The translations under genes were made by a program, and so were the position numbers. DNA of 64,000 bases from an uncultured Acidobacteriota bacterium (GTDB lineage Bacteria; Acidobacteriota; Thermoanaerobaculia; Multivoradales; UBA5704): the NCBI GenBank assembly GCA_963718645.1, contig OY970373.1:4202452-4266451 (forward strand). Reading direction: 5' to 3'. Below, piece by piece: positions 7,363 through 55,296 of this stretch; the stretch's first letter is position 1, and every line of letters starts with the position of its first letter. The notes under the pieces are model-generated. The model saw nothing but the letters and a program-made list of their open reading frames with translations. It made no database searches and was not told the origin of the DNA.

Positions 7363-8320
7363 CGGACGCTTCGAGCAATCTTTCCAGGCTGAGCGAAAAG
7401 CCCACCGCCGGCACCTCAGCGCCGAGGGCGCGGAACAGGCGGTCGTAGCGCCCGCCGCCGCCCACCGGCAGCGCGGCGGCGCCGGCGTAGGCGTGGAAGA
7501 CGAGCCCGTCGTAGTAGGGGCGGTCGCCGTCCCCGCCGGCCAGCCGCGGATCGAGGCTGTTGCAGGCGAACTCGGCGAGGTCGATCGTCAGCAGCACGCC
7601 GGGGAAGTCGGCGGCCAGCTCGCCGCGCAGCCTGTAAAGCGCGCGCAGGCGCTCCGCCGCCGCCGCCGCTCCCAGCTCCTCCGGCCGGCCGGGGACGCCG
7701 CGCTCGACGATGTCGAGGAGCGTCGAGCCGGCCCGCCGCACCTCGCCGCGCTCGCGCCGCGCCACCGCCGAGGCCAGCCGGAGTGGGTCGTCGACCCCCG
7801 CCGCCAGCAGCAGCCCGTCGAGCGCGCCGGCGAAGCCGAGCACCACCTGCAGGCCGGCGCTCCCGGACGCCGTCGCCAGCTCCAGGAAGAGGCGCAGCAC
7901 CTCGCGCTCGGCCGTCTCGCCGGGGAGGCCGAGCAGCTCGGCGCCCACCTGGTAGAACTCGCGCGCCCGCCCCGCCCGCTCCTCCTGGTAGCGGATGACG
8001 TCGCCGCGATAGTAGAGGCGGAGCGGCAGCGCGAGGGACGCCAGCCGGGGAGCCAGCAGCCGCGCCAGCATCGGCGTGAAATCGGCGCGCAGGGCCAGCA
8101 GCTCGCCGTCGCGGTCGACGAAGCGGTAGAGCTCGCCGCGCGTGGCGGGCGTCAGCATCGCCTCGTAGGGTTCCAGGTAGTCGAGGATCGGCAGGATCAC
8201 CTCGCCGTAGCCCGCCGCCTCCAGCCGCGCCACCAGCCGCTCCTCGGCGGCGCGCCGCCGCCGCGCGCTCTCGAACAGCAGGGCGGCGACGCCGGTGGGG
8301 AGAGCGGCCGAGACCCTCAC
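7304..8320 (-). CDS. hisZ: ATP phosphoribosyltransferase regulatory subunit HisZ (HisS-like), with a repeat-encoded C-terminal tail
   Basis: ...ALLFESARRRRAAEERLVARLEAAGYGEVILPILDYLEPYEAM...YYDGLVFHAY... shows the class II aaRS-like fold. The GTG start at 8320 overlaps the upstream TGA (GTGA). The last 20 aa, SASPSPGEGGWEGTGEGARG, are encoded by repeat A3. Confidence 0.8.
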   Translation of the reverse strand: MRVSAALPTGVAALLFESARRRRAAEERLVARLEAAGYGEVILPILDYLEPYEAMLTPATRGELYRFVDRDGELLALRADFTPMLARLLAPRLASLALPLRLYYRGDVIRYQEERAGRAREFYQVGAELLGLPGETAEREVLRLFLELATASGSAGLQVVLGFAGALDGLLLAAGVDDPLRLASAVARRERGEVRRAGSTLLDIVERGVPGRPEELGAAAAAERLRALYRLRGELAADFPGVLLTIDLAEFACNSLDPRLAGGDGDRPYYDGLVFHAYAGAAALPVGGGGRYDRLFRALGAEVPAVGFSLSLERLLEASASPSPGEGGWEGTGEGARG

Positions 8321-9864
8321 GGTGCCGGCCTCAGTACCGGCCTCAATTCGGGATCGAGCCCGGCCGTCCGGCGCGCCAGGTCCAGCGGCAGCTCGCGGCC
8401 GGTCATCAACTGGAACTGGCCGCGCGCCTGATCCACCAGCACCTCGCGGCCGTCGATCGCTACGGCGCCGCGCGCCGCCGCCGCGGTCAGCAGCCGCGTC
8501 GGCCGGTCCATGAAGTAGACGAGGTCGATCACCACCGCGCCGGGGCGGAGGTGGTCGACGGCGAAGGGCAGTGGATCGTCGGCGCCGCGGCCCAGCGAGG
8601 TGGCGTTGACCAGCAGGTCGAAGGCGGACGGATCGAGCTCGGTGAGCGGCCGGAAAGTGACGTGGAGCTGCTTGGCGGCGAGGTACGCGGCCGAGCTCTT
8701 GCCGCGCTCCGGATCGCGGTTGAACAGTGTCACCCGCGCGCCTGCCCGGTGGAGCCCCGCCACCCCCGAGCGGCCGGCGCCGCCGGCGCCGACCACCGCC
8801 GCCTCCATCCCCTCGATCGCCAGGCCGCGGTCGCGTAGCGGCAGCACCACGCCGTCCGGATCGGTCGCCTCGGCCTCCCACACCCCCTGGTTGCAAACCA
8901 GGGTGTTGGCGGCGCCGATCAGGCTGACCAGCGGGCTCTCCGCGCCGCACACCGCCAGAGCCGACTCCTTGAACGGCGCGGTCACCGAGAGGCCGCGGAT
9001 GGAGAGGCCGATGGCGTCCAGCGCCGCGTTCTCCACCACCTCCAGCCAGAAGTCGCCGAAGGAGCCGGTGTGGAACGGCAAATAGACCGCCGGGATCCCC
9101 AGGGCACGGTAGGCGGCGTTGTGGATGCGGGGGGAGAGCGAGTGGTTGACCGGATTGCCGACGAGGCCGAACACCGATTCGATCGGCGGCAGCTCGGGCA
9201 GGCCGTAATCGCCGATCAGGCGGGCGAGCGAGATCTGCCCGGGTGCGCCCGGCACGTCGCCCAGCGCGGCATAGACCACCGGCGCGCCGAGACGAGGGGC
9301 GAGCAGGCGCGTCCAGGCGCCGCCGGGGCCGGCGGCGAAGGCGGCGACGTCGCGGCGGCCGAGCGAGGCGAGCAGCAGCAGCGCCGCCACCTCGTCCCCC
9401 GGCTGCACGGCGGTGGGGATCAGCTTGTAGAGCGCGGCGCCATGGACGGCCATCCGCTCGAAGATGGCGGTGAGGCCGTCGAGCCCCGGCGCCGGACCGT
9501 GCCAGGAGATCACCCGTTTCCCGGCGGGCACCGCCTTGAGGACATCCAGCGTTAGATCCCGCGCCGCTTCGAGGTCGACGAAGTCGTAGCGCGCCGCCGC
9601 GTCGATCAGCCGCTGCCGGCGCCGCTCGGGGGCGCCCTCGGAGGCGCCCCCCTCGGCGCGGCTGCGCAGCGTGTAGAGGAGCTTGCCGGGAAAGATGCCG
9701 CGAAGTTGGGCCGCGTCGAGGTCGCCGACGAGGTCGCCGCGGACCTCCAGCCAGTCGACCCCCTCCAGGTCGGACGCCCGCGGCAGGGCGCTCCCGGCGG
9801 GGAGGGTCGTGAGGGTCGCGACCATCGTGGCGCGGACCCGTGCGGCCGGCGGCGCTGTCTCCAA
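8317..9864 (-). CDS. Bifunctional 3-dehydroquinate dehydratase (type I) / shikimate dehydrogenase (AroD-AroE fusion), first gene of the his transcription unit
   Basis: The N-terminal half has LEVRGDL and a type I DHQase-like region. The C-terminal half has GLVGNPVNHSLSPRIHNAAYRALGIPAVYLPF...VVGAGGAGRS (AroE). TTG start at 9864, or an internal ATG at 9828. Confidence 0.7.
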   Translation of the reverse strand: METAPPAARVRATMVATLTTLPAGSALPRASDLEGVDWLEVRGDLVGDLDAAQLRGIFPGKLLYTLRSRAEGGASEGAPERRRQRLIDAAARYDFVDLEAARDLTLDVLKAVPAGKRVISWHGPAPGLDGLTAIFERMAVHGAALYKLIPTAVQPGDEVAALLLLASLGRRDVAAFAAGPGGAWTRLLAPRLGAPVVYAALGDVPGAPGQISLARLIGDYGLPELPPIESVFGLVGNPVNHSLSPRIHNAAYRALGIPAVYLPFHTGSFGDFWLEVVENAALDAIGLSIRGLSVTAPFKESALAVCGAESPLVSLIGAANTLVCNQGVWEAEATDPDGVVLPLRDRGLAIEGMEAAVVGAGGAGRSGVAGLHRAGARVTLFNRDPERGKSSAAYLAAKQLHVTFRPLTELDPSAFDLLVNATSLGRGADDPLPFAVDHLRPGAVVIDLVYFMDRPTRLLTAAAARGAVAIDGREVLVDQARGQFQLMTGRELPLDLARRTAGLDPELRPVLRPAP

Positions 9865-9867
9865 AAC

Positions 9868-9902
9868 GAAAACCTCCTTCCGAGACCCGGAAGGAGGCGA
9901 CG
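9868..9902 (-). terminator. Intrinsic-terminator-like hairpin plus T-run in the his operon 5' leader (possible attenuator)
   Basis: On the minus strand the 10-bp stem CCTCCTTCCG / CGGAAGGAGG (loop GGTCT) is followed by TTTTCGTTTT. It ends 3 nt before the aroDE TTG. Confidence 0.5.
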
Positions 9903-9957
9903 TGGAAGCGTCAGGCAGTCTCTCGTCCCGGGTCCGTGCGGCCGGGACGTGCCCGGC

Positions 9958-10044
9958 TCAGTTCACGGAGCAATGATGGCCGTGCGCACGCCAACCCAGG
10001 GAGGCGGCGGTCTCGGGCGGGCACGTAGTGTTCAAGCGCATCAT
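9958..10044 (-). CDS. Candidate histidine-operon leader peptide (28 aa), speculative
   Basis: The minus-strand small ORF ATGATGCGC...CACGGCCATCAT...TGA encodes MMRLNTTCPPETAASLGWRAHGHHCSVN (HGHH). It lies about 55 nt upstream of a GC hairpin plus T-run terminator, directly in front of the aroDE start. Confidence 0.25.
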   Translation of the reverse strand: MMRLNTTCPPETAASLGWRAHGHHCSVN

Positions 10045-10123
10045 CGAATTCCCGTTTGAGGTTGAAGCTTATCCCAGACGGCGGCGGGGATGTCAAGCGC
10101 CGCCCCATGCGACAATCCCCGCC

Positions 10124-10930
10124 ATGCGCCACCTCGTCATCTACCTCCTCCGCTACGGCCTCGCCGTCGTCTTCGGCAACGTCTTCCTGGAGCAGCTCGG
10201 CGTGCCGATCCCCGCGCTCCCTACCCTGATCGTCGCCGGAGCTCTGATCCAGGGCGGGCAGATGGCGTTCCCGCCGGTCCTCGCCATGGCATTCATCGCC
10301 ACGCTGCTGGCCGATTCGATCTGGTTCGCGGCGGGGCGCTGGCAAGGGCACCGGGTGCTGCGCACGGTCTGCCGCCTATCGCTCTCCCCCGACTCCTGCG
10401 TCCGGGGCACCGAGGATCTCTTCGAGCGCGCCGGCATGCCGTCGCTCCTCTACGCCAAGTTCATCCCCGGCTACAGCATGATCGCGCCGCCGCTGGCCGG
10501 CGCCATGGGCAAGTCGGTGGCCTCCTTCCTTTTCTGGGACGGCCTCGGCGGTCTCCTCTGGCTCGGCTCCGGCCTGCTCGCCGGCTTCGTCTTCCACCAC
10601 GCCGTCAACCAGGTGATCGAGCACCTGGAAGCCCTCGGCTTCTGGTCCGGCGTGGTGATCGCGGCCGCCCTGGCGCTGGTCGTCCTCTGGAAGTGGTGGC
10701 AGCGGCGGCGGGTGCAGAAGATCCTCCGCCTCGCCCGCATCCCCGTCTCCGAGCTGAAGCGGCTGATGGACACCGGGAACGCGCCGCTGGTGGTCGACGT
10801 GCGCAATCGCTCCTCCCAGCTCCACGACCCCCGGCGCGTGCCGGGAGCCCTGAAGATGACGATCGACGAGATCGACGCGCATCTCGGCGAGCTCCCCCGC
10901 GACCGCGAGATCATCCTCTACTGTGCCTGA
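10124..10930 (+). CDS. DedA/SNARE-associated membrane protein fused to a C-terminal rhodanese domain. An in-frame TGA at 10928-10930 interrupts the rhodanese active-site loop.
   Basis: MRHLVIYLLRYGLAVVFGNVFLEQLGVPIP... is DedA. Then comes ...LVVDVRNRSSQLHDPRRVPGAL...REIILYCA* (rhodanese). In the same frame after the TGA, PNEASAARVARALMDKGFTRVRPLEGGIDAW completes the rhodanese fold up to 11103. Confidence 0.7.
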   Translation: MRHLVIYLLRYGLAVVFGNVFLEQLGVPIPALPTLIVAGALIQGGQMAFPPVLAMAFIATLLADSIWFAAGRWQGHRVLRTVCRLSLSPDSCVRGTEDLFERAGMPSLLYAKFIPGYSMIAPPLAGAMGKSVASFLFWDGLGGLLWLGSGLLAGFVFHHAVNQVIEHLEALGFWSGVVIAAALALVVLWKWWQRRRVQKILRLARIPVSELKRLMDTGNAPLVVDVRNRSSQLHDPRRVPGALKMTIDEIDAHLGELPRDREIILYCA

Positions 10931-11103
10931 CCGAACGAAGCCTCCGCGGCCCGTGTGGCTCGCGCACTGATGGACAAAGGCTTCACCCGGGTCCGCCCGC
11001 TCGAAGGGGGGATCGACGCCTGGGCGGACGCCGGCTATTCGATGGAAGACGAGACGGTCGTCGGCGTCCGGCGCCCCGAGGGCACGCTAGACTCATCCGC
11101 CTG
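10931..11103 (+). pseudogene. In-frame continuation of the rhodanese domain after the TGA: a disrupted gene, a read-through/recoding segment, or an assembly error
   Basis: It has no independent start and lies in the same frame as 10124..10930. The rhodanese C-terminal signature GFxxVxxLxGGxxAW is present. Confidence 0.45.
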
Positions 11104-11128
11104 AAGACATCTACCCGGGAGATTCCCC

Positions 11129-12460
11129 ATGATGCAATACAAGACCATCGCCCGCGTCCTCAACCTCGTCGCCGACGCCGACCAGCAGATCCTCAACCTG
11201 TCGGTGGACGAGGCTCGCGCCCTGCTCCTCTCGGACAACCCCGAGGACGTCCTGCGGATCGAGGGCTCCTTCGCCCTGCTCGCCCGCGACGGCCAGCGGG
11301 TGCGCCTGGCGCGCAGCCTCGACCGGCCGCTCCGCTACTTTCTCGCCAAGGAGAAGGACGGCCCGATGCTGGTGGTGGCCGACCGCATCGACCAGATCCG
11401 CGACGCCCTGGAGCGCGAGGGGCACGGCGATCAGTTCCACCCCTCGTACACGCGGATGATCCCGGCCCATCACGTCACCGAGATCCAGCTCGTCGGCTGT
11501 CCCGATCCCAACCCCGTCTACCGCCGCTTCTTCGATCCGCCGCGCGAGGTGCTCCCCCCCGACCTCGACGTCATCGGCGAGGCGTACGTCCAAGCTCTCT
11601 GCGAGGAGGTCCGCCGCTGGCTGGCCGCTCTCCCCGCGAAGGAGCCCCTGGGCGTCCTCTTCTCCGGCGGCATGGACAGCGGGGCCCTCCTGCTGGCGCT
11701 CCACCATGAGCTGCTCGCCGCCGGTCAGAGCCCGGCCCGGCTGAAGGCGTTCACCCTCGCCGTGGACGGCGGCGGCGCCGACCTCGCCCAGGCTCGCGAG
11801 CTCCTCCGCCGCGCCGATCTCCAGATCCTCCACGAGGTGATCGAGGCGAGCGGCGACGACATCGACCCCTTCGCGGCCGTCGAGGCGATCGAGGACTACA
11901 AGCCGCTGGACGTCGAGTGCGCGGCGATGAGCCTCGCCCTGCTGAAGGGGATCCGCGCGCGCTACCCCGACTGGCGCCACCTCGCCGACGGCGACGGCGG
12001 CGACGAGAACCTCAAGGACTACCCGATCGAGGAGAACCCCGAGCTGACCATCCGCAGCGTGGTCAACAACCGCATGCTCTACCAGGAAGGGTGGGGCGTG
12101 GAGGCGATCAAGCACTCCCTCACCTACAGCGGCGGATTGAGCCGCGGCTGCGTCCGCGGCTACGCCCCGGCGCGAAGGCACGGCTTCGTCACTTTCAGCC
12201 CGTTCGTCCGCCCGCGGGTGATCGCCGTGGCCGAGGCGATCCCCTTCGCCGAGCTGACCCAAGGCTCCCACGAGACGCTCTACAGCTTGAAGGGCGAAGT
12301 GCTGCGGCGCGGCCTCCTGAAGGTGACCGGCCGCGACCTCCCCGTCTTCCCCAAGCGGCGCTTCCAGCACGGCGCGGTGCCGGCGGAGACGTTCCAGGAA
12401 CGGTTCGACCTCCGGCCGCTCCAGTATCGGAGCCATCTGCTCAGCCTCTACCAGGCCTAG
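11129..12460 (+). CDS. Asparagine-synthetase (AsnB)-like PP-loop amidoligase lacking the N-terminal Cys nucleophile
   Basis: It starts MMQYKT with no Cys2. A degenerate GATase remnant GSFALLARDGQRVRLARSLDRPLRYF is followed by the PP-loop LGVLFSGGMDSGALLLAL. The RBS is GGGAG. Confidence 0.75.
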   Translation: MMQYKTIARVLNLVADADQQILNLSVDEARALLLSDNPEDVLRIEGSFALLARDGQRVRLARSLDRPLRYFLAKEKDGPMLVVADRIDQIRDALEREGHGDQFHPSYTRMIPAHHVTEIQLVGCPDPNPVYRRFFDPPREVLPPDLDVIGEAYVQALCEEVRRWLAALPAKEPLGVLFSGGMDSGALLLALHHELLAAGQSPARLKAFTLAVDGGGADLAQARELLRRADLQILHEVIEASGDDIDPFAAVEAIEDYKPLDVECAAMSLALLKGIRARYPDWRHLADGDGGDENLKDYPIEENPELTIRSVVNNRMLYQEGWGVEAIKHSLTYSGGLSRGCVRGYAPARRHGFVTFSPFVRPRVIAVAEAIPFAELTQGSHETLYSLKGEVLRRGLLKVTGRDLPVFPKRRFQHGAVPAETFQERFDLRPLQYRSHLLSLYQA

Positions 12461-12462
12461 AG

Positions 12463-13404
12463 GTGAAAGGAGTCTCCCAGTGGGTTCGCTCGCAGAGGAT
12501 CCCTCGCTTCGAGCCCGATCCCTGGAAGCCGCTGGGGCACCTCTGGGAAGAGGAGCGTACGGCGGAGGGGGGCACGATTCCCGCCCTCACCGTCTTCCTT
12601 GCCGGGGCGGAATGCCCGTTCACCTGCGTCTTCTGCGATCTCTGGCGCGAGACGCTCGCGGGGCCGACGCCCGCGGGGGCCTTGCCTGAACAGATCCGCA
12701 AGGCTCTCGCCGCCGCCGGTCCCTTGAGGGCACCGGCGGCGCTGAAGCTCTACAACGCCAGCAATTTCTTCGAGCCGCGGGCCGTGCCGCCGGAAGACGA
12801 GCCAGAGATTCTCGACCTCTCCGCTCCGTTCGCCCGCGTCACCGTCGAATGCCATCCGCGGCTGATCGGCGATCGCTGTCTCCGTTTCGCCGAACGGTTG
12901 GCCGGCCGCCTGGAAGTCGCCATGGGATTGGAGACGGTCCACCCGGAAGCCCTGCCGCGCCTGAACAAGGGGATGACCCTCGACGACTTCGACCGCGCCG
13001 CCGACACTCTCCGGAAAGCGGGGATCGGCCTGCGCGCCTTCGTGCTGGTCTCGCCGCCGTTCGTGCCGCCCGAGGAGGCGATCGAGTGGGTGTATCGATC
13101 AGCCGCCTACGCCTTCGAGCGCGGTGCTGAAAGGGTCGCGCTGATTCCGGTCCGCAGCGATAACGGCTTCCTGGAGACTCTCTGGGAAGCCGGCGATTTC
13201 ACGCACCCCCGCCTCGATCAGCTCGAGGAGGCCCTGGAGCGCTGCCTGGACCTCAACGGCATCGTCACCGCCGATCTCTGGGATGCGCGCCGCTTCGCGG
13301 ACTGCCCCCACTGTGCGGACGCGCGGCTGGCGCGGCTCGATCGGATGAACCGCTCCGGTCGGGCCGAGCCGCGAGCCAACTGTGCAATCTGCGGAAACTC
13401 ATGA
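12463..13404 (+). CDS. Radical-SAM-like Fe-S protein (CX3CX2C) with C-terminal CxxC...CxxC
   Basis: The GTG lies 2 nt after the upstream TAG. ...TIPALTVFLAGAECPFTCVFCDLW...KLYNASNFFEP...MGLETVHPEAL...AGIGLRAFVLV...DCPHCAD...NCAICGNS*. The TGA overlaps the next ATG (ATGA). Confidence 0.65.
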   Translation: MKGVSQWVRSQRIPRFEPDPWKPLGHLWEEERTAEGGTIPALTVFLAGAECPFTCVFCDLWRETLAGPTPAGALPEQIRKALAAAGPLRAPAALKLYNASNFFEPRAVPPEDEPEILDLSAPFARVTVECHPRLIGDRCLRFAERLAGRLEVAMGLETVHPEALPRLNKGMTLDDFDRAADTLRKAGIGLRAFVLVSPPFVPPEEAIEWVYRSAAYAFERGAERVALIPVRSDNGFLETLWEAGDFTHPRLDQLEEALERCLDLNGIVTADLWDARRFADCPHCADARLARLDRMNRSGRAEPRANCAICGNS

Positions 13405-14909
13405 AAATCGCCATCGTCGGCTCCGGCTTCGCGGGCTCCATCCTCGCGCGCGTCCTCCAGGTGCAGGGGCACCAGGTGCTCCTCCTCGACCGCAACCGCC
13501 ACCCGCGCTTCGCCCTCGGCGAGTCGTCCACGCCGCTGGCCGCGATCTGCCTGGAGCGCTTGGCCGCGCGCTACGGCCTCGACGACCTCCACGCCCTCGC
13601 CGCCTGGGGGCGCTGGCAGGAGCGGCTCCCTCATCTCCGCCGCGGCCTCAAGCGGGGCTTCACCTTCTACGGCCACACACCCGGCCGCCCCTACGCCAAC
13701 GGCGCCGCCAACGAGCGGCGCGTCCTGGTGGCCGCCAGCCCGACGGACGCCATCGCCGACACCCACTGGCTGCGCGCGGACGTCGACCACCACCTCGTCC
13801 TCCAGGCCGCCGCGGCGGGCGTCGAGGTGGTGGAAGAGGTCGAGTTGACCGGGCTGGAAACGCGCTCAGGAAACGGCTGGCACCTCCATGGCACGCACCG
13901 GCAGCGGCCCGTCCGCTTCGAGGCCGACCTCCTGATCGACGCCTCGGGCCCCGGCGGCTTCCTCGCCCGCCACCTCTCAATTCCCCGGGTGGAGACCGCG
14001 CCGAACACATCCCTCGTCTTCGGCCACTTCGAAGGTCTCGCCGATTTTTCGGAGGTCACCGGCGCGGCGCTCCCCGCCGGTCCGTACCCCGACGAGAACG
14101 CCGCCATTCATCACGTCCTGGAAGAGGGGTGGATGTACGTCCTCCCCTTCGATCACGGCACCGTCAGCGCCGGCTTCGTGATCCAGCAGGAACGCGCGCG
14201 GGAAGAGCTGTCTTCTCTGACGCCGGACGCCGCCTGGGACCGTCTCCTCGGTCGCTATCCGACGCTGCGGGATCAGTTCGCGCCCGCCCGTCCGACGCGG
14301 CCGATCGGGAAGATCGCTCGCCTCCAGCACCGCTTGGAGCGGGCGTCAGGAGAAAACTGGGCGCTGCTGCCGCACGCCTTCTGCTTCCTCTCGCCCCTGT
14401 TCTCCACCGGCATCGCTTGGAGCCTGCTCGCCGTCGAGCGCCTGGCCCTGCTGCTGGAGACCGGAACGAACCTGGAAGCGGGGATCGCCCGCTACGGCGA
14501 TCTGCTCAACCGCGAGGCGGATCACGTCCAGTCGCTCGTCGCGGGAGCGTACGAGAGGATGACCGATTTCGATCGCTTCACCGCCTACTCAATGATCTAT
14601 TTCGCCGCCGCCAGCTTCGGAGAAGCCAGCCAGCGCCTCCTCCCCCCGCCTGCGGACGGCTGGGCCTGGAATGGCTTTCTCGGCAGCACCGATCCCGTGA
14701 TCCGGGAGATGCTCGCGCGAATCCTCGCCGGCCCCGATTCCGAGGGCGACATCCGCGCCGCCATCGCGCCGCGCAACCTCGCGGGCCTGGCCGATCCCGC
14801 GCGCAACCGGATGGTGCCGGTGGATCTGGACGTGCTGATCGAACAGGCGCCACTGCTGGGGCTCACCCAGGAAGAGATTCGGCGTGAGATCCCAAGGCTG
14901 CGTGGATAG
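13401..14909 (+). CDS. FAD-dependent flavoprotein of the tryptophan-halogenase / geranylgeranyl-reductase-like family
   Basis: MKIAIVGSGFAGSILARVL (GxGxxG)...RFALGESSTPLA (compare halogenase GVGEATIP)...EGWMYVLPF (degenerate WxWxIP). Confidence 0.75.
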   Translation: MKIAIVGSGFAGSILARVLQVQGHQVLLLDRNRHPRFALGESSTPLAAICLERLAARYGLDDLHALAAWGRWQERLPHLRRGLKRGFTFYGHTPGRPYANGAANERRVLVAASPTDAIADTHWLRADVDHHLVLQAAAAGVEVVEEVELTGLETRSGNGWHLHGTHRQRPVRFEADLLIDASGPGGFLARHLSIPRVETAPNTSLVFGHFEGLADFSEVTGAALPAGPYPDENAAIHHVLEEGWMYVLPFDHGTVSAGFVIQQERAREELSSLTPDAAWDRLLGRYPTLRDQFAPARPTRPIGKIARLQHRLERASGENWALLPHAFCFLSPLFSTGIAWSLLAVERLALLLETGTNLEAGIARYGDLLNREADHVQSLVAGAYERMTDFDRFTAYSMIYFAAASFGEASQRLLPPPADGWAWNGFLGSTDPVIREMLARILAGPDSEGDIRAAIAPRNLAGLADPARNRMVPVDLDVLIEQAPLLGLTQEEIRREIPRLRG

Positions 14910-14971
14910 ACGCGATCGGCGTTACGCCTGTCCGTGCCATTGCTTCCTTTCGTCGCCGTCCTGCGCTATCT

Positions 14972-15000
14972 TTGACCTACCCTGGGAGACTCTCTATACT
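14972..15000 (+). promoter_or_regulatory. Sigma70-like promoter for the Uma2 gene
   Basis: TTGACC (14972-14977), a 17-nt spacer, then TATACT (14995-15000), 7 nt before the ATG at 15008. Confidence 0.5.
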
Positions 15001-15007
15001 CGCAGCC

Positions 15008-15925
15008 ATGGTGCAGCCTGTTTGGAAGACGCCGCGCGACGAGAGCGAATGGCCGGACGATGAGAACGGCGTCACGCTCCTCCAGCGCTGGGTCGAACGC
15101 CCCGACGGCAGCAACGAGTTGCTTGAGATCCCGCTAACGCCGGAGCTTTTTCTCGACCCGCAGCTCGAGGACAAAATGGTCCAAGGGGAGTTTCACGCCA
15201 GCCTGATGGCGGAGTTCAGGGAGTTGCTGGGGCGGTACTTCCATGGCCAGCCCGGCGTCAAGGTGCTGATGGACGTCAAGCACCCGCTGGGACGCGGCCT
15301 TCCCGGGCCCGCGCCGGACATCTCGATCGTCCGAGGCGTCCGCAATCCGGAGCGCAAGCGCCGCAGCTTCAACGTCGTCAAAGAGGGCGTCGTTCCCTCC
15401 TTCATCCTGGAGATCGTCTCCCCTTCTGACGCCCGCATTCGCCGCACCGACGAGGTCGACAAGGTGAAGCTCTACGAGCGGATCCAAGTCCAGGAATATC
15501 TTCTTGTGGACGTGCCCCGGAGAGGGACGGAAGGACGCTTCCGGCTCAAGGGGTACCGTTTAGGCCTGGATCACTGTTATCAGCTCATCGAACCAGATGA
15601 GGCCGGGCGCGTTGCCTGCAATACGGTGGGTCTCCTCTTCGGCGTCGCTCCGGATGGGGATCGGATCGAAGTCTTCGAGATCGCGAGCGGAGCGCGGCTG
15701 CGGACTCCGCAAGAGGAAGTAGAGGCACGCGAAAGGGCCGAGCGAGTGGCGGATCGAGCCGAGAAGGCCCGTGAAAAGGCCGAGCGAGTGGCCGAGCGAG
15801 CCGAGAAGGCCCGTGAAGTGGCCGAGCGAGTGGCCGAGCGAGCTGAGAAGGCCCGTGAAGTGGCCGAGGAGGAACTTGCCCGCCTACGGGAGGAGATCGA
15901 ACGGCTCAAGAGGTCTGACCTGTAA
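15008..15925 (+). CDS. Uma2-family (DUF820) putative restriction-endonuclease-like protein with a C-terminal coiled-coil repeat
   Basis: MVQPVWKTPRDESEW...SFILEIVSPSD...YLLVD is the Uma2/PD-(D/E)xK fold. The C-terminus is ERAERVADRAEKAREKAERVAERAEKAREVAERVAERAEKAREVAEEE. Confidence 0.7.
   Translation: MVQPVWKTPRDESEWPDDENGVTLLQRWVERPDGSNELLEIPLTPELFLDPQLEDKMVQGEFHASLMAEFRELLGRYFHGQPGVKVLMDVKHPLGRGLPGPAPDISIVRGVRNPERKRRSFNVVKEGVVPSFILEIVSPSDARIRRTDEVDKVKLYERIQVQEYLLVDVPRRGTEGRFRLKGYRLGLDHCYQLIEPDEAGRVACNTVGLLFGVAPDGDRIEVFEIASGARLRTPQEEVEARERAERVADRAEKAREKAERVAERAEKAREVAERVAERAEKAREVAEEELARLREEIERLKRSDL
15737..15862 (+). repeat. 42-bp x3 in-frame tandem repeat inside the Uma2 gene (14-aa AERVAERAEKAREV units)
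   Basis: GCCGAGCGAGTGGCCGAGCGAGCCGAGAAGGCCCGTGAAGTG-type units begin at 15737, 15779 and 15821. Confidence 0.7.
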
Positions 15926-16958
15926 GTTTTTCCACCACCCGATCCCACGTCACCTCCCGCACCCTCCCCTGCCCCGCAAGTCCCATCGCCCTCGCCCTTT
16001 CACGGTCTTTATAGAGCAGATCGATCCGTGCTCCGATCTCCTTCGGCGACTCGGACGAGCCGATGAACCCGTTCACGCCGTCCTCCAAGAATTCGAGCAC
16101 GCCGCCGGCGTCCGTGGTGCTGATCACCGGTTTGGCGGCTTTGAAGGCTTCGACGGTCACGTAACCATAGTCCTCGTCGTAGGGGGCGTAGTAGACGCCT
16201 AGGCAATTGGCGTAGTGCTCGACGACGTCGCGGTCGTCCACCCAGCCGAGGAGCTCGACGCGGCCGGTCAGGCCGTTGCGATCGATCAGGTTTTGCAGGT
16301 TCTCGCGCTCGGGGCCGGTGCCGGCGATGCGGCAGCGGACGGGGGTTTCGGTGTGCTTCATGGCGCGGATCAGCAGATCGAATCGCTTCAAGGGATCGAG
16401 ACGGCCGATCGAAAAGATGTAGTCGCCGAAATCCCCAGGATGGTAGAGGCGGTCGAGCTTCGGTGGCGGATAGAGCACCTCGCCCTCGACTCCATTGAAG
16501 CGCCGCAGGCGGTCTGCCACGTTACCCGAGATGGTGTAGACGGCCCGCGCCTCGGAGAGCGTGCGGCAGTCCATGGCGCGGATCATCTCCAGCGCCTTGG
16601 CGTCGCGAGGTTGCGCTTCCGAAAAATCGCTGTAGGGCGTGCCCAGCAGGTCGTAGGCCTGGCGGAGCTGATGGATCAGCCAGACGACCTTGTTGGGATG
16701 TTTGATCAGATAGGAGGGGAAGCGCGTCGCGATGACGAGATCGATCCGCTTGCCGGCCGCCTCGGTGAGGTTCACCAGGCGCCAGGCGAGACTCCCTTTC
16801 AGCAGCTCGGTCCGCGTCGGCCAGTGGAAGGGGAGGGCGACGACGTCCACCTCGAAGCCGCGGCTCTTCAGCTCGTCGCGGAGGGAATCGACGAGCATCT
16901 CGGCCCCGCCGTAGGCGAACGGGATCTTGGTGGCGCAGATGACGACGCGCGGCTTCAC
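15906..16958 (-). CDS. Glycosyltransferase family 4 (GT-B)
   Basis: The GTG at 16958 gives VKPRVVICATKIPFAYGGAEMLVDSL...EGFGLVTVEA-like ...YAPYDEDYGYVTVEAFKAAKPVISTTDAGG. Confidence 0.8.
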   Translation of the reverse strand: MKPRVVICATKIPFAYGGAEMLVDSLRDELKSRGFEVDVVALPFHWPTRTELLKGSLAWRLVNLTEAAGKRIDLVIATRFPSYLIKHPNKVVWLIHQLRQAYDLLGTPYSDFSEAQPRDAKALEMIRAMDCRTLSEARAVYTISGNVADRLRRFNGVEGEVLYPPPKLDRLYHPGDFGDYIFSIGRLDPLKRFDLLIRAMKHTETPVRCRIAGTGPERENLQNLIDRNGLTGRVELLGWVDDRDVVEHYANCLGVYYAPYDEDYGYVTVEAFKAAKPVISTTDAGGVLEFLEDGVNGFIGSSESPKEIGARIDLLYKDRERARAMGLAGQGRVREVTWDRVVEKLTGQTS

Positions 16959-17377
16959 CCCGGGGGATCCTTCTCCAGCCGGCGCTCCAGCGCCTCGACC
17001 CGCGCGCCGAGTTGACGCACCTCGCGGGCCGTCCGCTCCTGCGATTCCACGAGGTCCTCGATCAGCCGCGCCGCCGCCTGATTGAAACCGTTCTGCTGCT
17101 CCAGGATCGGCCGCAACAGCCACTTCAGGAATAGTTTGTAGACCGCCTTTCGCGCCAGGACGATCAACCTCCCGAGCCCCGGCCGGTGCGAAAAGGCGAC
17201 CGGTTCTTGCACGTACTCGCGCTGCTTCAGGGCCAGCAGGCCGTTGAGCGTCCCCTCCCCACCGGCCCCCAGCGTGGCCGACTCGGCGCGGCGCTGCCGC
17301 ACGCCGGAGCGGACTTTCTGGAGGACCTCGTCGACGCGGAGGTCGTCGGGGGACGGCGCGGGAGTGGGGTCGGGCAT
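16955..17377 (-). CDS. Hypothetical small protein, coiled-coil C-terminus, translationally coupled (GTGA) to the downstream GT4
   Basis: MPDPTPAPSPDDLRVDEVLQKVRS...VRQLGARVEALERRLEKDPPG. It is not an obvious shadow ORF, but no family was recognised. Confidence 0.35.
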   Translation of the reverse strand: MPDPTPAPSPDDLRVDEVLQKVRSGVRQRRAESATLGAGGEGTLNGLLALKQREYVQEPVAFSHRPGLGRLIVLARKAVYKLFLKWLLRPILEQQNGFNQAAARLIEDLVESQERTAREVRQLGARVEALERRLEKDPPG

Positions 17378-17390
17378 CTGATTGTGAATT

Positions 17391-19119
17391 CTACGGCCCC
17401 TTGCCGCTGAAATCGACGAACACCCCGAGGTACCGCGGATCATGGCTCCTGTAGTCGACGCGGGAGGGGACCAGCCCCGAGGTGGTGTCCAGGATGAGGC
17501 GGTAGAAGCTCTCGCCGGGGGCGTTCGGGAAGAAGCCGAGGCCGCCGGCGGCGGGTTGGACGGCGAGGTCGACCGGCGTGCCGTTGCGCTTGCCGTCCGA
17601 ATCGAAGCGGACGGTCAGCCGGTCCCTCCCGCTGTCGAGCGTCAGGACGTTGGTCGCCGAGAGGGAGTCGACGTCGAAGGCGAGGCGCGCGAGGGGCACG
17701 GGCGAGATCACGATGACTTCGGAGCGCGTGGCGCCGCGCACCCAGACGCCGTGGGGGTTGTGCTCGTCGGCGAAGAAGGTGCCGGTGGGGACGATCCAGA
17801 CGGCGTCTTTCCAGGTCTGGGAAGAAAAGCCCGGAAGGTGATCGCCCACCAGCAGGGTCAGCTCCAGCGGCAGGCGCTGGAAGGCGGGTGAGGCCGCGTA
17901 GGAAGTCGAATCGAGCGGCGCGGAGACCAGGGCCGTGGCGGTCCAGAGGCCGGCAGCGGCGAAGGGGAGCGCGAGGCTCCGGCGGGCGTCGAGCCGGCCG
18001 GGCAGGAAGAGGAAGGCCGGATAGACGAGCGCGAGGTAGCGGCTGCCGAGGAAGCCCGGGGTACCGTTGAAGTCGTGGGGATGGAGGATCAGCACGGCCA
18101 GAACATAGACGCCCAGAGCGGCCAGGACGAGGTGGCGCGAGCGATCCTTCCGGCCGAACAGGTAGAGGCCGAGGGCGAAGAGCGCGAAGGGGAAGTAGGG
18201 GAGCAGTCCGGTAGAGCGGCCGGCGACGGCGTACCCAAGATTGCGCGGCAGGAGGCGCAGGCCGGTGGAAACCGCCGGACGGGCTTCCTCCGGGCCATGC
18301 ACCTGCCAGAGGTCGCGCTGACTTTCGAGCGGAAACTCGGCGTCGAACGTGCGGCGCTGGGCGCCCTGGAAGGCGGTCCACTCGCCGGTGCCGCGGCGCT
18401 GGACGAGCGCGAGGACGCTGACCGCGATCAGCACCCCCACGATCAGGACGGCGAGCCCTCGCCAGCGGCGGGCCACGGCGAAATCGATCAGGATCGGCAG
18501 GCCGAGCAGCGCGAGGAGGGGGTTGGCGGTCAGCAGCGCGCCGAGCAGGAGTCCCGACCCGGCGAGGAGGGCGAGATGCCGCCGGTCCCAGCGGTCGAGC
18601 GCGCGCAGGCGCCGCCAGGCGAGGAGGGGAAAGAAGGCGCAGGCCATCAGGAAGACGGCGGGCTCCATCCGGAAGGCATAGGCGAACGCGGCCGAGGCGA
18701 AGAAGAAGCCGGCCAGCAGGAGCGGCGAGGCGTCGAGATCGCCGGTCGGCAGCCAGAGCGATCCGACCGCCATGGCCAGGAAGAGCGCCATGTTGAAGAG
18801 GGCGATTCCACGCAGGCCGATCAGGGCGTAGAACGGCAGCGCCGCGAGCGGATAGGCGAGCGGCTGGCCGTAGCGCATCGTCTTGCCGCCGTCGTCCGTG
18901 AACAGGGTGAGGCCGGCGGGCCCCCCCTCCCAGATCCGCTCGGCGCGGTCGAGGTCGGCCTCCCGGTAGGTGAGGTCGTGATCGTGCCAGAGGCTCTGGA
19001 CCATCATCACCGACGTCGCCTCGTCGCCCGCCGGCAGCGGCGCGCGGAGGCCGGCGAGGGTCCACGCCGATGCCAGAAGCAGCAGGGCGAGGCAGAGGAT
19101 GGGGATGGGGCGGAGGCGC
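17391..19119 (-). CDS. GT-C fold membrane glycosyltransferase (ArnT / PMT / GT39-GT83-like), multi-TM with a C-terminal periplasmic domain
   Basis: MRLRPIPILCLALLLLASAW...PLPAGDEATSVMMVQSLW (first-loop DE motif) is followed by about 11 hydrophobic helices and a roughly 200-aa soluble C-terminus. Confidence 0.65.
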
Positions 19120-19221
19120 ATGATGGGAGGACGGTGCGGACCGGGCAGGTACCGCGCAAAGATACACTCTCCGCGACATGAGGGAAAAACGCAGTCCCGG
19201 AATTTTGCCCCGGCAGGGGCA

Positions 19222-19370
19222 ACGGCATGTAGCCTGGGGCGCAAGCCCCAGGAAAGAGGTGCCAGGCGATTCCCCGAGCCCCGAAGGGGCGACGGCAGAT
19301 CATCTTTCCGAGAAAGACCGCCGTCCGGGTTCAGGGCGTGTGGCTTGCTGGGGCGTCCTGCGCTCCGAAG
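19222..19370. repeat. Repeat family B copy B2 (partial or rearranged)
   Basis: GCATGTAGCCTGGGGCGCAAGCCCCAGG plus AGCCCCGAAGGGGCGACGGCAG. It shares 20-30-mers with B1. A short B-like fragment lies at 54896-54925. Confidence 0.65.
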
Positions 19371-19377
19371 CCTCACC

Positions 19378-19501
19378 CGTGGCCTGCGACCTCATCCCCT
19401 ATCCCCTTCTCCTAAAGGAGAAGGGGGACGACTGCGATGCGGCCCCCGTCAGGCCCTCCCTCTCCTTTAGGAGAGGGACCGAGGGTGAGGTCGCAGGCCA
19501 C
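19378..19501. repeat. Repeat family C copy C1: ~124-bp palindromic element
   Basis: GTGGCCTGCGACCTCATCCCCTATCCCCTTCTCCTAAAGGAGAAGGGGG ... CCCTCCCTCTCCTTTAGGAGAGGGACCGAGGGTGAGGTCGCAGGCCAC. Confidence 0.7.
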
Positions 19502-19671
19502 GAACATCCCCGATTCTGCGAGATGCGCAGGACGGCCGGAGGGCACCGCCCCTGAAGATCCTCCGCGCCCTCCTCCGCTTCGGCTCCCCCCGGCGCCTGC
19601 GCCGGACCTTCCTCTGGCTTTGGGGGATCGCCGGGGAGATCCGCCGCCGCCGCGCCGAGCCGCGGCGGACG

Positions 19672-20808
19672 GTGGCGGTGGACGTCAACTCGTTCTACGA
19701 GCCGCTGACCGGCGTCGGGTGGTACCTGCATCAGATCCTGGTCCATCTCGCCGGCCGCGACGATCTCCGGTTGCGGCTCTACGGCCAGAGTCTGGTCGAG
19801 ACCGATCCCGGCGCTCCCCAGCCGGTGGTCGACTTCCCGGCGTTCTCGACGGGAGTTGCGATCGAGCGGGTGACGTACGCGGCGCCGGACGGCCTCGTGG
19901 TCCCCCCCTGGCGCGCGGACCAGATCCTCCGCCGCCTCGCTCCCCTGCTGATGGCGGCGGACGGCAACGCGGTGCTGTTCGCACCGAACTATCTCTTCCC
20001 GCCGCTCTTCCGCTTCGCCGCGGGGGAGCGGGTGGCGACGATCCACGACCTCGGCGTCATCAAGGTGCCCTGGGCGGTGCGGCCGGACTCCGGCGTGGCC
20101 CTGCGCGAGCGGCTGGAGCGCACGCTCTTCGCGGCGGACCTCCTGCTGACTCCCAGCGAGGCGGTGCGGCGGGAGCTGATCGGCATCGGCGTCGCTCCCG
20201 GCCGCGTGCGGGCGATCCACCACGGCACCGGCGTCCTGTCCAAGGCCGCGCCGGCAACCCTGCCGGCGGCCACCCCGGCGCGCTTCGCGCTCCACGTCGG
20301 CACGATCGAGCCGCGGAAGAACGTCGCGGTCCTGCTCGCGGCCTGGCGGCGGATGAGGGCAGCGGGAATCGGGCCGCCGCCGCTGGTGCTCTGCGGCGGC
20401 TTTGGCTGGAACGCCGAGGAGATCCGCACGGAGATCGACGAGGCCGCGCGGGAAGGCTGGGTCGTCCATCCCGGCTATGTGACCGCGGGCGAGCTGGCCG
20501 CCTTGTACGCGGCGGCCGAGCTGGTGGCGCTTCCGTCCTTCTACGAGGGGTTCGGCCTGCCGGCAATCGAGGCGCTGGCCGCCGGGGCGCCGCTGGTGGC
20601 GAGCGACCTGCCCGTTCTGCGCGAGGTGGCCGGGGACGCCGCCCTCTACGCCACGCCCGACCGGCCGGATCTCTGGGCGGAGGCGATCGCAGCGCTGCTG
20701 GCGGACGCGAATCTGCGCGCCGAACTCCGGCGGAAGGGTCTGGAGCGCGCCAGGCTCTTCGACTGGACGCGGGCCGCGGCGGAGACGGCGCGTGCGTTCG
20801 GGGTCTGA
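19672..20808 (+). CDS. Glycosyltransferase family 4
   Basis: GTG start. VAVDVNSFYEPLTGVGWYLHQIL...GTIEPRKN...PSFYEGFGLPAIEALAAGAPLVAS. Confidence 0.8.
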   Translation: MAVDVNSFYEPLTGVGWYLHQILVHLAGRDDLRLRLYGQSLVETDPGAPQPVVDFPAFSTGVAIERVTYAAPDGLVVPPWRADQILRRLAPLLMAADGNAVLFAPNYLFPPLFRFAAGERVATIHDLGVIKVPWAVRPDSGVALRERLERTLFAADLLLTPSEAVRRELIGIGVAPGRVRAIHHGTGVLSKAAPATLPAATPARFALHVGTIEPRKNVAVLLAAWRRMRAAGIGPPPLVLCGGFGWNAEEIRTEIDEAAREGWVVHPGYVTAGELAALYAAAELVALPSFYEGFGLPAIEALAAGAPLVASDLPVLREVAGDAALYATPDRPDLWAEAIAALLADANLRAELRRKGLERARLFDWTRAAAETARAFGV

Positions 20809-20836
20809 GATCGGTATTTTGTGCCAAATTGGCGTC

Positions 20837-21050
20837 AAACATTGTTTTTTCCGTTTTTCCATTGTTTGGCGGCTTCAAACATTGTTTGCGAGCCCCAAAC
20901 ATTGTTTTTTCGGCTCGAACAATGTTTGAGACGCTGAAACATTGTTTGAAGCCCTGAAAGATTGTTGGAAGCGCTGGAACATTGTTGCAGGCGGGAAAAC
21001 ACAGTTTGAAGCCCTAAAACATTGTTCGAAGCCCTGAAACATTGTTCAAG
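20837..21050. repeat. Eleven direct tandem units with an exact 20-bp period, each having a near-palindromic core AACAWTGTT (AAACATTGTT)
   Basis: Cores lie at 20841, 20861, 20881, 20901, 20921 (inverted: GAACAATGTT), 20941, 20961, 20981, 21001 (ACAGTT), 21021 and 21041. The region is locally AT-rich within a 70% GC genome. It sits between the GT4 stop (20808) and the GT-C start (21083), and the last unit overlaps a putative -35. Confidence 0.85.
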
Positions 21051-21082
21051 CCTCTTTTCGCCTGCGGTAGACTCCGCCTCCC

Positions 21083-24360: not shown

Positions 24361-24478
24361 GAAAGAACACGGACGGACACGGACGGACATGGACGAGCAC
24401 GGACCCAGGGACCGCGGGACCGGCCTCCGGTGGTTTATCGTCCGTGGCGGTCCGTGTGGGTCCGTGCTCGTCCGTGCA
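24361..24478. repeat. Repeat family D: long imperfect hairpin of ACGGAC-rich arms immediately after the stop codon (TAGGAAAGAACA...)
   Basis: GAAAGAACACGGACGGACACGGACGGACATGGACGAGCACGGACCC ... GGGTCCGTGCTCGTCCGTG. A second copy lies at 40839-40937 after recA. Confidence 0.6.
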
Positions 24479-24541
24479 GGTCATGGCGCGCAGGCAAGAT
24501 TCCGTTAGAATCACGATTTCCTGGCCCCTCGGAGACCCCGT

Positions 24542-25672: not shown

Positions 25673-25677
25673 CGCAA

Positions 25678-26838: not shown

Positions 26839-26851
26839 GGGGCTCTCTCCG

Positions 26852-33199: not shown

Positions 33200-33241
33200 G
33201 ATCCTCCGCGGGGAGCGGCGGTGTTAAGCTGCGGAAACGCC

Positions 33242-35343: not shown

Positions 35344-35365
35344 CGTGCGCCCCTCCGAGCGGTTC

Positions 35366-55095: not shown

Positions 55096-55296
55096 GGCCA
55101 CCCTCGCATCCAAGGATGCGTCCCCTTCAGAGACACCCCGTCCCATCGGGGTGACATCTGTCCTAGCAACTCATCCACCTCATCCTCATCATTTCCATTT
55201 AAAATCAAACCGTTCCGCGTTCCGGCTCCCAGGAATTTTCCTGGCCCGCCCCTTGCTCTCTCTAAAGGTGGATCGTCTCGGGCAAAGGAGAAAGAC

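Follow-up and report, generated by a model that had tools for sequence, protein, structure and literature searches.

A gene trio conserved across bacterial phyla: an AsnB-derived ligase, a radical SAM enzyme and a flavin-dependent halogenase

The locus

The sequence described here is a 64,000-nucleotide stretch of DNA (the window; G+C approximately 70%) from an uncultured Acidobacteriota bacterium of the class Thermoanaerobaculia (contig OY970373.1, positions 4,202,452 to 4,266,451). It carries three tightly coupled genes, referred to below as genes 1, 2 and 3 and together as the trio. They encode an AsnB-derived ligase, a radical S-adenosylmethionine (SAM) enzyme and a flavin-dependent halogenase, which are known enzyme families in a new combination. 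An earlier note on this DNA, made from the sequence alone, had stated that the trio is no textbook pathway. This agrees with the searches: no characterized pathway, NCBIfam equivalog, PADLOC defence model (E ≤ 0.01 for the three proteins) or paper matches it, and the literature searches found no characterized member. The features of the trio are as follows.

11129–12460, forward strand: gene 1, 443 amino acids; AsnB-fold PP-loop ligase, N-terminal part of the glutaminase domain missing
11660–11683, forward strand: PP-loop FSGGMDSG, gene 1 residues 178–185, from translation
12463–13404, forward strand: gene 2, 313 amino acids; radical SAM enzyme of the RaSEA/Elp3-like branch, with a C-terminal four-Cys module
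12613–12636, forward strand: CX3CX2C of gene 2 (CPFTCVFC; C51, C55, C58), ligands of the [4Fe-4S]/SAM cluster, from translation
13303–13392, forward strand: CPHC...CAIC of gene 2 (C281, C284, C307, C310), candidate auxiliary cluster or zinc site
13401–14909, forward strand: gene 3, 502 amino acids; two-component-type flavin-dependent halogenase of the phenolic (PltM/CtcP) kind
13419–13436, forward strand: GSGFAG of gene 3, from translation
13650–13652, forward strand: codon of Lys84 (in GLKRGFTF), halogenase catalytic lysine, from alignment to PltM
14130–14147, forward strand: WMYVLP of gene 3, the local form of WxWxIP, from translation
14972–15000, forward strand: sigma-70-like promoter just 3' of gene 3, TTGACC, 17-nucleotide spacer, TATACT

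The genes are nearly contiguous. Gene 1 stops at TAG (12458–12460) and is followed by the dinucleotide 'ag' and the GTG start codon of gene 2 at 12463. The TGA of gene 2 (13402–13404) and the ATG of gene 3 (13401–13403) share an ATGA overlap. The 2-nucleotide spacer and the overlap lie where the earlier note had placed them, and all the motifs it quoted translate as claimed, including the GESSTP block of gene 3. In a consensus scan of positions 9700–16100, the stretch between genes 1 and 3 contains nothing that resembles a promoter or terminator. A single promoter-like site was detected in the scanned interval, at 14972–15000, and it marks the 3' boundary of the operon. It probably drives the next gene, which encodes a Uma2 protein and is likely to start at the ATG at 15008. 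Genes 1–3 constitute one operon, extended upstream in this lineage by a DedA::rhodanese selenoprotein gene.

Distribution and inheritance of the trio

Related loci were collected in two scans. The first covered one genome per GTDB species (approximately 186,000) with an alignment of gene 2 and gave 198 matches, a number bounded by how specific the search patterns were. Of these, the 80 best loci were retained; they come from Thermoanaerobaculia, Vicinamibacterales and Gemmatimonadota. The second scan, seeded with the gene 1 family, covered metagenomes and contributed 80 more loci with a G+C content of 0.36–0.75. Gene order is strongly preserved in both sets. Of the 79 gene-2-selected loci with room upstream, 78 have gene 1 ahead of gene 2, and gene 2 lies directly after gene 1 in 50 of 57 gene-1-selected loci (approximately 88%). 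Gene 3 follows in 53/56 and 18/23 of the gene-2- and gene-1-selected loci, respectively. The complete order is present at 94 loci in at least three phyla, with median estimated gaps of 17 and 12 nucleotides. The earlier note had asked whether the genes are ever co-located elsewhere; they are, and in the same order.

The trio is inherited as a unit. Across the 94 complete loci, divergence from the window copy is correlated between each pair of proteins (Spearman coefficient 0.91–0.92). Gene 1 is the most conserved of the three, at 46–97% identity to the window copy. The low-G+C trios belong to Bacteroidota; among the carriers are several Chitinophagaceae and two cultured species, Mucilaginibacter ginsenosidivorans and M. 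segetis. In these trios the genes overlap by 8 nucleotides. Because cultured Mucilaginibacter species carry the operon, the trio is directly testable. Gene 1 relatives with 47–49% identity are still coupled to a downstream radical SAM gene, whereas archaeal relatives and those of the candidate phyla radiation (CPR; 33–42% identity) stand alone, without genes 2 and 3. The core of the system is therefore the gene 1–gene 2 pair, usually extended by the halogenase.

Several database entries resemble gene 1–gene 2 fusions. Two of them, P0131 (761 amino acids) and P0248, were rejected as Arg-rich frameshifted translations from error-prone metagenome assemblies. Three others (P0133, P0140 and P0179) can be aligned to gene 1 as well as gene 2 and are possible fusions. 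None of the five was taken as evidence of interaction. Such entries (see also locus L083) could mislead surveys of domain architecture. The distant gene 1 homologues of Berkelbacteria, Nanoarchaeota and other archaea (among them those at L084, 6095–9969; L085, 5533–8499; L081, 3144–13654) were set aside as guides to function, as they show no common neighbour theme. On two archaeal contigs the gene 1 homologue is divergently paired with a tandem AsnC-type helix–turn–helix protein, and on one of the two it is coupled to a haem-oxygenase-like gene (PF14518). The Berkelbacteria homologue stands after Liv-type ABC transporter genes and before a 782-amino acid protein without a known family.

Gene 1: a ligase with a truncated glutaminase domain

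The gene 1 product matches the Pfam family Asn_synthase (PF00733) with 40.5 bits (cut-off 21; E = 3.5e-10) and fails the AsnB equivalog of NCBIfam, TIGR01536, scoring 29.6 bits against a cut-off of 267. A sequence search of the Protein Data Bank (PDB) gave nothing useful for it, and the plasmid collection held no match. Its AlphaFold model has a mean predicted local distance difference test (pLDDT) value of 89.5. Foldseek aligns this model over both domains with human and Escherichia coli asparagine synthetases, TsnB9 and carbapenam synthetase (CarA), and the fold matches range from E = 6e-14 to 1e-9 with template modelling (TM) scores of 0.55–0.66. The top entries are beta-lactam synthetase structures (1m1z, 1jgt and 1mc1; E from 6e-14 to approximately 1e-13, TM approximately 0.6).

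Gene 1 shares with AsnB, beta-lactam synthetase, carbapenam synthetase and TsnB9 the two-domain fold, the SGGxDS and GxGxDE...Y motifs and a lysine in the catalytic site. In the alignment to E. coli AsnB, its SGGxDS PP-loop, GDGGDE...Y block and K409 correspond to S235–S240, the G348...E353 block and K450 (K409 is equated with AsnB Lys450 in numbering that counts Met1). Residues S179, G181, D183, S184, G288, G290–E293 and K409 are invariant in all 81 homologues compared; G180 is replaced by alanine in two. Other features set the family apart from these enzymes. The aspartate of the 'DCAR' motif in AsnB contacts the alpha-amino group of aspartate; in gene 1 this column holds glycine. A conserved, family-specific insert of 22 amino acids (YQEGWG...YSGGLSR) is also present. 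The largest difference concerns the N-terminus, which begins MMQYKT: the counterpart of Cys2 is absent and approximately AsnB residues 30–95 are missing, in all five family members aligned to AsnB. The earlier note's description of a nucleophile-less AsnB-like protein is thus upheld by fold match and alignment. It was right that Cys2 is lacking and underestimated the loss, which takes away the N-terminal part of the glutaminase domain. Because half of this domain is deleted, the enzyme is predicted to be unable to make ammonia from glutamine and to need an external amine. In the half-domain that is retained, R62, R69, F103, Y107 and P112 are invariant. Only 722 representatives at E ≤ 1e-3 were found among 1.84 billion proteins, and the family is, to judge from these searches, small and distinct from mainstream AsnB.

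The fold matches raise the question of whether an external amine is used at all. Beta-lactam and carbapenam synthetases also lack a working glutaminase, and an enzyme of this type would close an intramolecular lactam, leaving genes 2 and 3 to tailor the ring system. That beta-lactam synthetase entries head the fold matches speaks for such a role. Their lead over the human and bacterial asparagine synthetases is marginal, however, and sequence identity is 17–19%. Beta-lactam synthetase moreover has a full-length N-terminal domain, of which gene 1 has lost about half, and no other clavam or carbapenem pathway genes occur nearby, either in the window or among the conserved neighbours. Lactam formation is therefore considered very unlikely, and coupling to an external amine is preferred.

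Gene 2: a radical SAM enzyme of the RaSEA branch

Assignment of gene 2 to the radical SAM enzymes, which the earlier note had made from the motif, is borne out by several lines of evidence. The protein scores above the cut-off of Pfam Radical_SAM (PF04055; 34.4 bits versus 29.5, E = 3.2e-8), and the CX3CX2C motif is invariant in 55/55 homologues. Its AlphaFold model (pLDDT 92) best matches the radical SAM domain of Elp3 (E = 2e-7), followed by those of PylB, LipA and BioB, the whole series spanning E = 2e-7 to 1e-5. The motif occupies residues 51–58, not a position about 95 residues from the N-terminus as had been noted. Each of the C-terminal cysteines (C281, C284, C307 and C310) is kept in 48–51 of the 55 homologues. 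By inspection, the arrangement differs from the SPASM/twitch pattern, and the module is a candidate auxiliary cluster or zinc site. Pfam detects no RRE, SPASM or twitch signature in the protein, and a sequence search of the PDB returned nothing useful.

The closest NCBIfam family is RaSEA (TIGR01210; 83.3 bits, E = 1.8e-23, model positions 2–252 of 313); the only other match is MnmL, with 23 bits. Because a score of 83 lies far under the RaSEA cut-off of 212 bits, gene 2 is no RaSEA orthologue. The archaeal system nevertheless offers the most instructive parallel to the gene 1–gene 2 pair. ArcS uses no NH4+, Asn or Gln; it attaches lysine and must be complexed with RaSEA to be active, and RaSEA turns preQ0-Lys into archaeosine (PMC11298593). 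The likeness is threefold: the best family of gene 2 is RaSEA, gene 1 resembles ArcS in deriving no ammonia from glutamine, and the two genes are nearly always paired. Differences are equally clear. The partner is an ATP-dependent AsnB-fold ligase here and an ArcTGT/PUA-type transferase there, the hosts are bacteria rather than Euryarchaeota, and gene 2 adds a four-Cys C-terminal module of its own. Neither ArcS/TGT-like nor preQ0 genes are present in the cassette or among the neighbours conserved across approximately 160 loci.

This resemblance invites the proposal that genes 1 and 2 perform archaeosine-type chemistry in bacteria, on a 7-deazaguanine or other carboxylated base of tRNA or DNA, and that gene 3 serves them as an accessory oxidoreductase. 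PP-loop ATPases often take part in modifying tRNA, and the informative matches of gene 2 (RaSEA, MnmL and the Elp3 fold) are all to tRNA-modifying radical SAM enzymes. These matches must be set against the low RaSEA score and the acidity of all three proteins (pI 5.4–6.1 in the window; orthologue medians 5.6–6.2). Neither the cassette nor its conserved neighbours include a tgt, queC, queD or queE gene or an RNA-binding domain. The distribution is patchy, with the 198 pattern-limited matches spread over some 186,000 species genomes, and we know of no RNA role for a halogenase with an intact catalytic lysine. A function in nucleic-acid modification thus appears highly improbable, and the tRNA option listed in the earlier note is disfavoured by the acidic proteins and the absence of tRNA-modification neighbours.

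The only plasmid relatives of gene 2, at 30% identity, are on pFRL3 of Streptomyces sp. FR1 (L086, 406401–417547). They lie among genes for a P450, serine hydroxymethyltransferase, GT9, a carbamoyltransferase and heptose activation. This cluster probably makes a glycosylated natural product, and its radical SAM enzyme belongs to the RaSEA branch. At this distance they were judged uninformative on the function of the trio.

Gene 3: a flavin-dependent halogenase

Gene 3 scores 62.5 bits against Pfam Trp_halogenase (E = 4.5e-17), above the gathering score. Residues 3–413 align with PltM (E = 8.8e-38) and residues 3–348 with the tetracycline 7-halogenase CtcP (E = 5e-35), both from the PDB; the PltM/CtcP matches reach 134 bits. 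PltM and CtcP halogenate free phenolics. The GxGxxG glycines (G7, G9 and G12) are kept in 32 of 34 distant homologues, the other two having gaps at these positions. In halogenases, the catalytic lysine (PrnA K79, PltM K87) directs the hypohalous species. Its counterpart in gene 3, K84, lies opposite Lys107 in the alignment with the tagged PltM chain 6bzt; from the length of the tag, we take Lys107 to be native K87. K84 is invariant in 67/67 close and 33/34 distant homologues.

The region equivalent to WxWxIP reads W244-M-Y246-V-L248-P249. Tyr246 is found in 66 of 67 members of the close set (Thermoanaerobaculia/Gemmatimonadota), whereas 33 of 34 more distant trios have tryptophan (WxWxL). Across the family the motif is therefore close to canonical, and it is degenerate in the clade of the window. 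The earlier note had placed the protein in the halogenase family, as the PltM/CtcP matches confirm, and had called this motif degenerate. That is correct for the window's clade; the enzyme as a whole is more canonical than supposed, with its invariant lysine and the WxWxL form outside the clade. Gene 3 thus shares with PltM, an enzyme of pyoluteorin/phloroglucinol chemistry, and with CtcP the GxGxxG, the catalytic lysine, a WxW-type motif and a conserved FxxPLFSxG block. It differs in having, in the window's clade, Tyr for the second Trp and Leu for Ile, in a unique C-terminus of approximately 90 residues, and in standing outside any polyketide synthase or non-ribosomal peptide synthetase (NRPS) cluster. 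It is predicted to be a genuine two-component flavin-dependent halogenase.

Genomic contexts

No neighbour is universal among approximately 160 related loci; contexts follow lineage. In Thermoanaerobaculia a DedA::rhodanese gene stands just before gene 1 or just after gene 3, and the upstream synteny hisD–hisG–hisZ–aroDE is unchanged. The remaining neighbours of loci lacking gene 2 or gene 3 (kinase-PD40, RibBA, chromate transporter, WD40-caspase and IS605 transposase genes) were dismissed as lineage noise.

Vicinamibacterales have a richer arrangement (L170, 6272–21368; L171, 6165–19975; L139, L098, L112, L102 and L138). Directly upstream, on the same strand, are genes for a cytochrome-c-like protein, a bicupin, HpaB (TIGR02310, 723 bits) and an HpaC-type flavin reductase, the last directly preceding gene 1. 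A LysR regulator, an MBL-fold protein and a glyoxalase-fold protein are encoded downstream. The halogenase gene of L170 is coupled to a SnoaL/LEH-like gene; L098 and L112 have no halogenase, and in L098 an MFS transporter gene follows gene 2.

Such a layout resembles aromatic catabolic operons of the tcp/hpa type. The trio could accordingly belong to a catabolic or detoxifying module for phenolic acids or amides derived from plants or humus, acting with HpaBC-type hydroxylases and ring-cleaving cupin or VOC dioxygenases under LysR control, and not to a biosynthetic pathway. The succession of bicupin, HpaB, flavin reductase, trio, LysR, MBL-fold hydrolase and glyoxalase-fold protein would suit this role. 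It is confined to a single order, however, and the trio stands alone elsewhere. Moreover, all characterized ATP-consuming AsnB-type ligases, radical SAM enzymes and flavin-dependent halogenases known to us serve in anabolism or tailoring. A catabolic function is consequently regarded as quite improbable.

A different context prevails in Gemmatimonadota, Bacteroidota and a clade from peat metagenomes, where one to four genes for secreted TPR/FG-GAP/UnbV-ASPIC proteins ('CRTAC1 family') flank the trio. Of the 118 loci with sufficient flanking sequence, 34 have such genes within 8 kb of the trio, and in 23 they lie within 365 nucleotides of it. Side and strand vary, and arrays of two to four are frequent (L172, 13852–17439; L173, 13803–20951 and beyond; L064, L074, L075, L058, L126, L133 and others). 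The encoded proteins have approximately 600 and 1150 amino acids, and their only relative in the PDB is human CRTAC1. Literature searches yielded nothing on the function of the bacterial FG-GAP/ASPIC proteins, and the window has none of their genes near the trio.

The adjacency suggests that the trio might mature the cytoplasmic precursors of these proteins (or large peptides) before export. Gene 1 would then form an isopeptide or an amide at a side chain or terminus, gene 2 would introduce a radical cross-link or other modification, and Tyr or Trp residues would be halogenated or hydroxylated by gene 3. Such maturation has precedents in LodB/GoxB and in the pair of QhpD (radical SAM) and QhpG (flavoprotein), which matures quinohemoprotein amine dehydrogenase. 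Gene 3 has sub-threshold NCBIfam matches to these flavoproteins (QhpG 64.7 bits versus a cut-off of 240, GoxB 38 versus 400, LodB 35 versus 400), and gene 1 weakly matches the lasso-type macrolactam cyclase model NF033561 (18.8 bits versus 300). Adjacency is provisionally estimated to be enriched roughly 20-fold. These phyla probably have many FG-GAP/ASPIC paralogues, however, which would inflate chance adjacency. Thermoanaerobaculia, the window included, and Vicinamibacterales have no such neighbour. Gene 2 lacks RRE, SPASM and twitch domains, and neither a protease nor a leader peptide is present. Gene 3 is also far closer to PltM/CtcP, at 134 bits, than to QhpG, at 65, and no qhp, lod or gox genes occur nearby. 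Protein maturation is therefore rated as unlikely, although it is the main rival to the function proposed below and accounts for a recurrent context.

Ribosomal peptides receive no better support. The earlier note had seen no precursor peptide in the cassette, and clustering of the 600-nucleotide flanks of approximately 150 trios likewise reveals no conserved small open reading frame (ORF). The small-ORF families that emerged were only out-of-frame or of low complexity, and were rejected as precursor candidates. The components of lasso-peptide systems, namely a precursor peptide, a transglutaminase-like protease (B) and an RRE, are not adjacent in the window or in the approximately 160 related loci.

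Proposed function

Our tentative proposal, drawn from family resemblance, is that the trio forms a self-contained small-molecule pathway whose substrate is an aromatic (phenolic) carboxylic acid and which comprises ATP-dependent ligation, a RaSEA-like radical step and FADH2-dependent halogenation. A small molecule is favoured over RNA or a ribosomal peptide because of the acidic pI, the lack of a conserved small ORF and the lack of an RRE, SPASM or protease partner. It is also favoured because the Vicinamibacterales context of HpaB and flavin reductase fits a phenolic substrate and a shared reductase. Among the options that the earlier note had listed, this is the one to which the evidence points. 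The pathway would proceed as follows. (i) Gene 1 would adenylate the carboxylate with ATP and couple the acyl-adenylate to an external amine, as its motifs and modelled fold suggest. (ii) By analogy with RaSEA, gene 2 may then run a 5'-deoxyadenosyl-radical step on the gene 1 adduct. The most economical proposal is C–N cleavage of an amino-acid (lysine-type) donor, which would leave a primary amide; the lysine donor and the N-dealkylation are the weakest link of the scheme. (iii) Gene 3, supplied with FADH2 in trans and with O2 and halide, would generate a Lys84-directed hypohalite or haloamine, so that the ring of the presumed substrate is chlorinated or brominated. The product is probably exported or acts on the envelope, as suggested by the DedA neighbour here and by MFS or secreted-protein neighbours elsewhere.

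Known systems provide partial parallels. In C-1027 biosynthesis, SgcC3, SgcC and SgcE6 are a halogenase, an HpaB-type hydroxylase and a shared flavin reductase acting on a tyrosine-derived phenol. Vicinamibacterales likewise co-encode the trio halogenase, an HpaB-family hydroxylase and an HpaC-type flavin reductase before gene 1. The trio differs in having no carrier protein, adenylation domain or aminomutase, and activation would fall to an AsnB-type ligase instead of an NRPS adenylation enzyme. The resemblance is functional and not one of orthology. The nearest published idea concerns the 'Halo_AMP' minimal clusters of sponge Acidobacteriota, which combine a flavin-dependent halogenase with an adenylating enzyme, a radical SAM enzyme and a P450 and are proposed to make small brominated alkaloids (bioRxiv 10.64898/2026.08.03.742642). 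Both systems join a halogenase, a carboxylate-adenylating enzyme and an unclassifiable radical SAM protein in Acidobacteriota. Halo_AMP clusters use an ANL (AMP-binding) enzyme and P450s and their products are proposed only, whereas the trio has an AsnB-type ligase and no P450. The Halo_AMP and ammosamide papers were accordingly taken as analogies and not as a pathway assignment.

Several observations count against the proposed pathway. Family resemblance is the sole basis of steps (i) to (iii). The score of gene 2 falls far short of the RaSEA cut-off, and ArcS, the partner of RaSEA, is unrelated to AsnB. Gene 1 occurs without gene 2 in 7 of 57 loci, and the gene 1–gene 2 pair without gene 3 in 5 of 23. 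The invariant N-terminal residues of gene 1 hint at a function outside the model. The window has no flavin reductase near the trio. The HpaB/flavin-reductase context is confined to one order and could mean catabolism, and the FG-GAP/ASPIC neighbours of Gemmatimonadota, Bacteroidota and the peat clade are not predicted by a small-molecule pathway.

A more far-reaching version, which is speculative and rather more doubtful than protein maturation, would see in genes 1 and 2 a glutamine-independent route to amides or amidines: the ligase adds an amino-acid nitrogen donor and the RaSEA-type enzyme cuts it. With the halogenase, the trio would then be a widespread source of organohalogens in soil phyla, maybe tied to the FG-GAP/ASPIC proteins.

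The trio is conserved across phyla and is represented in thousands of environmental sequence clusters. If the proposal is correct, the pairing of a ligase with a radical N-dealkylase would be a new amide-forming strategy, in which the logic of ArcS and RaSEA has moved from archaeal tRNA into bacterial metabolism, and the bacterial branch of the RaSEA family would gain a function. A halogenating pathway would also be common in abundant soil bacteria (Acidobacteriota, Gemmatimonadota and Bacteroidota); which organisms produce the natural organochlorines of soils is an open question. The recurrent linkage to the trio is, in addition, a first functional handle on the secreted FG-GAP/ASPIC family, and likewise on the DedA::rhodanese selenoprotein.

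The upstream DedA::rhodanese selenoprotein

The genes on either side of the trio had been identified in the earlier note as DedA::rhodanese and Uma2, and Pfam agrees with both. The end of the former at 10930 was misplaced: the TGA there is an in-frame selenocysteine (Sec) codon, and the gene continues to 11104. Its features are as follows.

10028–11104, forward strand: DedA/VTT::rhodanese gene (Pfam VTT_dom and Rhodanese), with an in-frame UGA (Sec) at 10928–10930
10928–10966, forward strand: UGA and a near-invariant, hairpin-capable stretch, candidate bacterial selenocysteine insertion sequence (SECIS), from alignment and RNAalifold

The gene ends 24 nucleotides before gene 1, and its true start is probably near 10124 (MRHLVIY). 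The UGA lies in the active-site loop of the rhodanese domain, in the motif ILYCA-U-PNEASAA (LYC[A/T]-U-PNEASAA across loci). Read through this codon, the protein matches NF041203, 'rhodanese_LYCAU (seleno)protein', with 86 bits over model positions 21–125 of 126 (cut-off 115). TGA occupies the same codon in 20/20 orthologous loci. In the alignment of 21 sequences, the 38 nucleotides after the UGA carry at most one substitution per locus while the flanking codons vary, a pattern taken to mark an embedded SECIS. By itself, the window candidate has no significant folding energy (z = −0.9), and a comparison with Rfam gives no match, so the Sec assignment rests on conservation. The gene is a lineage-specific neighbour of the trio and is probably co-transcribed with it. 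Both the fusion of rhodanese_LYCAU to DedA and its linkage to the trio appear to be undescribed.

Other features of the window

Downstream of the trio lies the following gene.

14972–15925 (promoter included), forward strand: Uma2 (PF05685) gene, with a C-terminal repeat (AEKAREVAERV)n

Because only the closest relative fetched (L001) has Uma2, this gene looks recently inserted beside the operon. Positions 15906–28279, 3' of it, form a glycosylation/exopolysaccharide region with GT4 glycosyltransferases, two large PMT/ArnT-like membrane proteins and a Bac_transf priming transferase; this region is not conserved beside the trio in other lineages. On the reverse strand, 34558–39503 holds a bestrophin-like gene followed by a MoxR AAA+/DUF58/TgpA-transglutaminase cluster. 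It lies approximately 20 kb from the trio and is unrelated to it, and was rejected as a context for a lasso-peptide B protein. Three forward-strand ORFs of 985, 446 and 453 amino acids (42111–45068, 33221–34561 and 55057–56418, respectively), with a strong coding signal (G+C content at third codon positions of 0.90–0.94), have no Pfam match at E ≤ 1e-4. Upstream of the trio, a tRNA-Arg(ACG) gene (7400–7479, reverse strand) is situated between hisG and hisZ. A terminator-like hairpin with a T-tract (9872–9898, reverse strand) lies in the divergent region between aroDE and the DedA gene.

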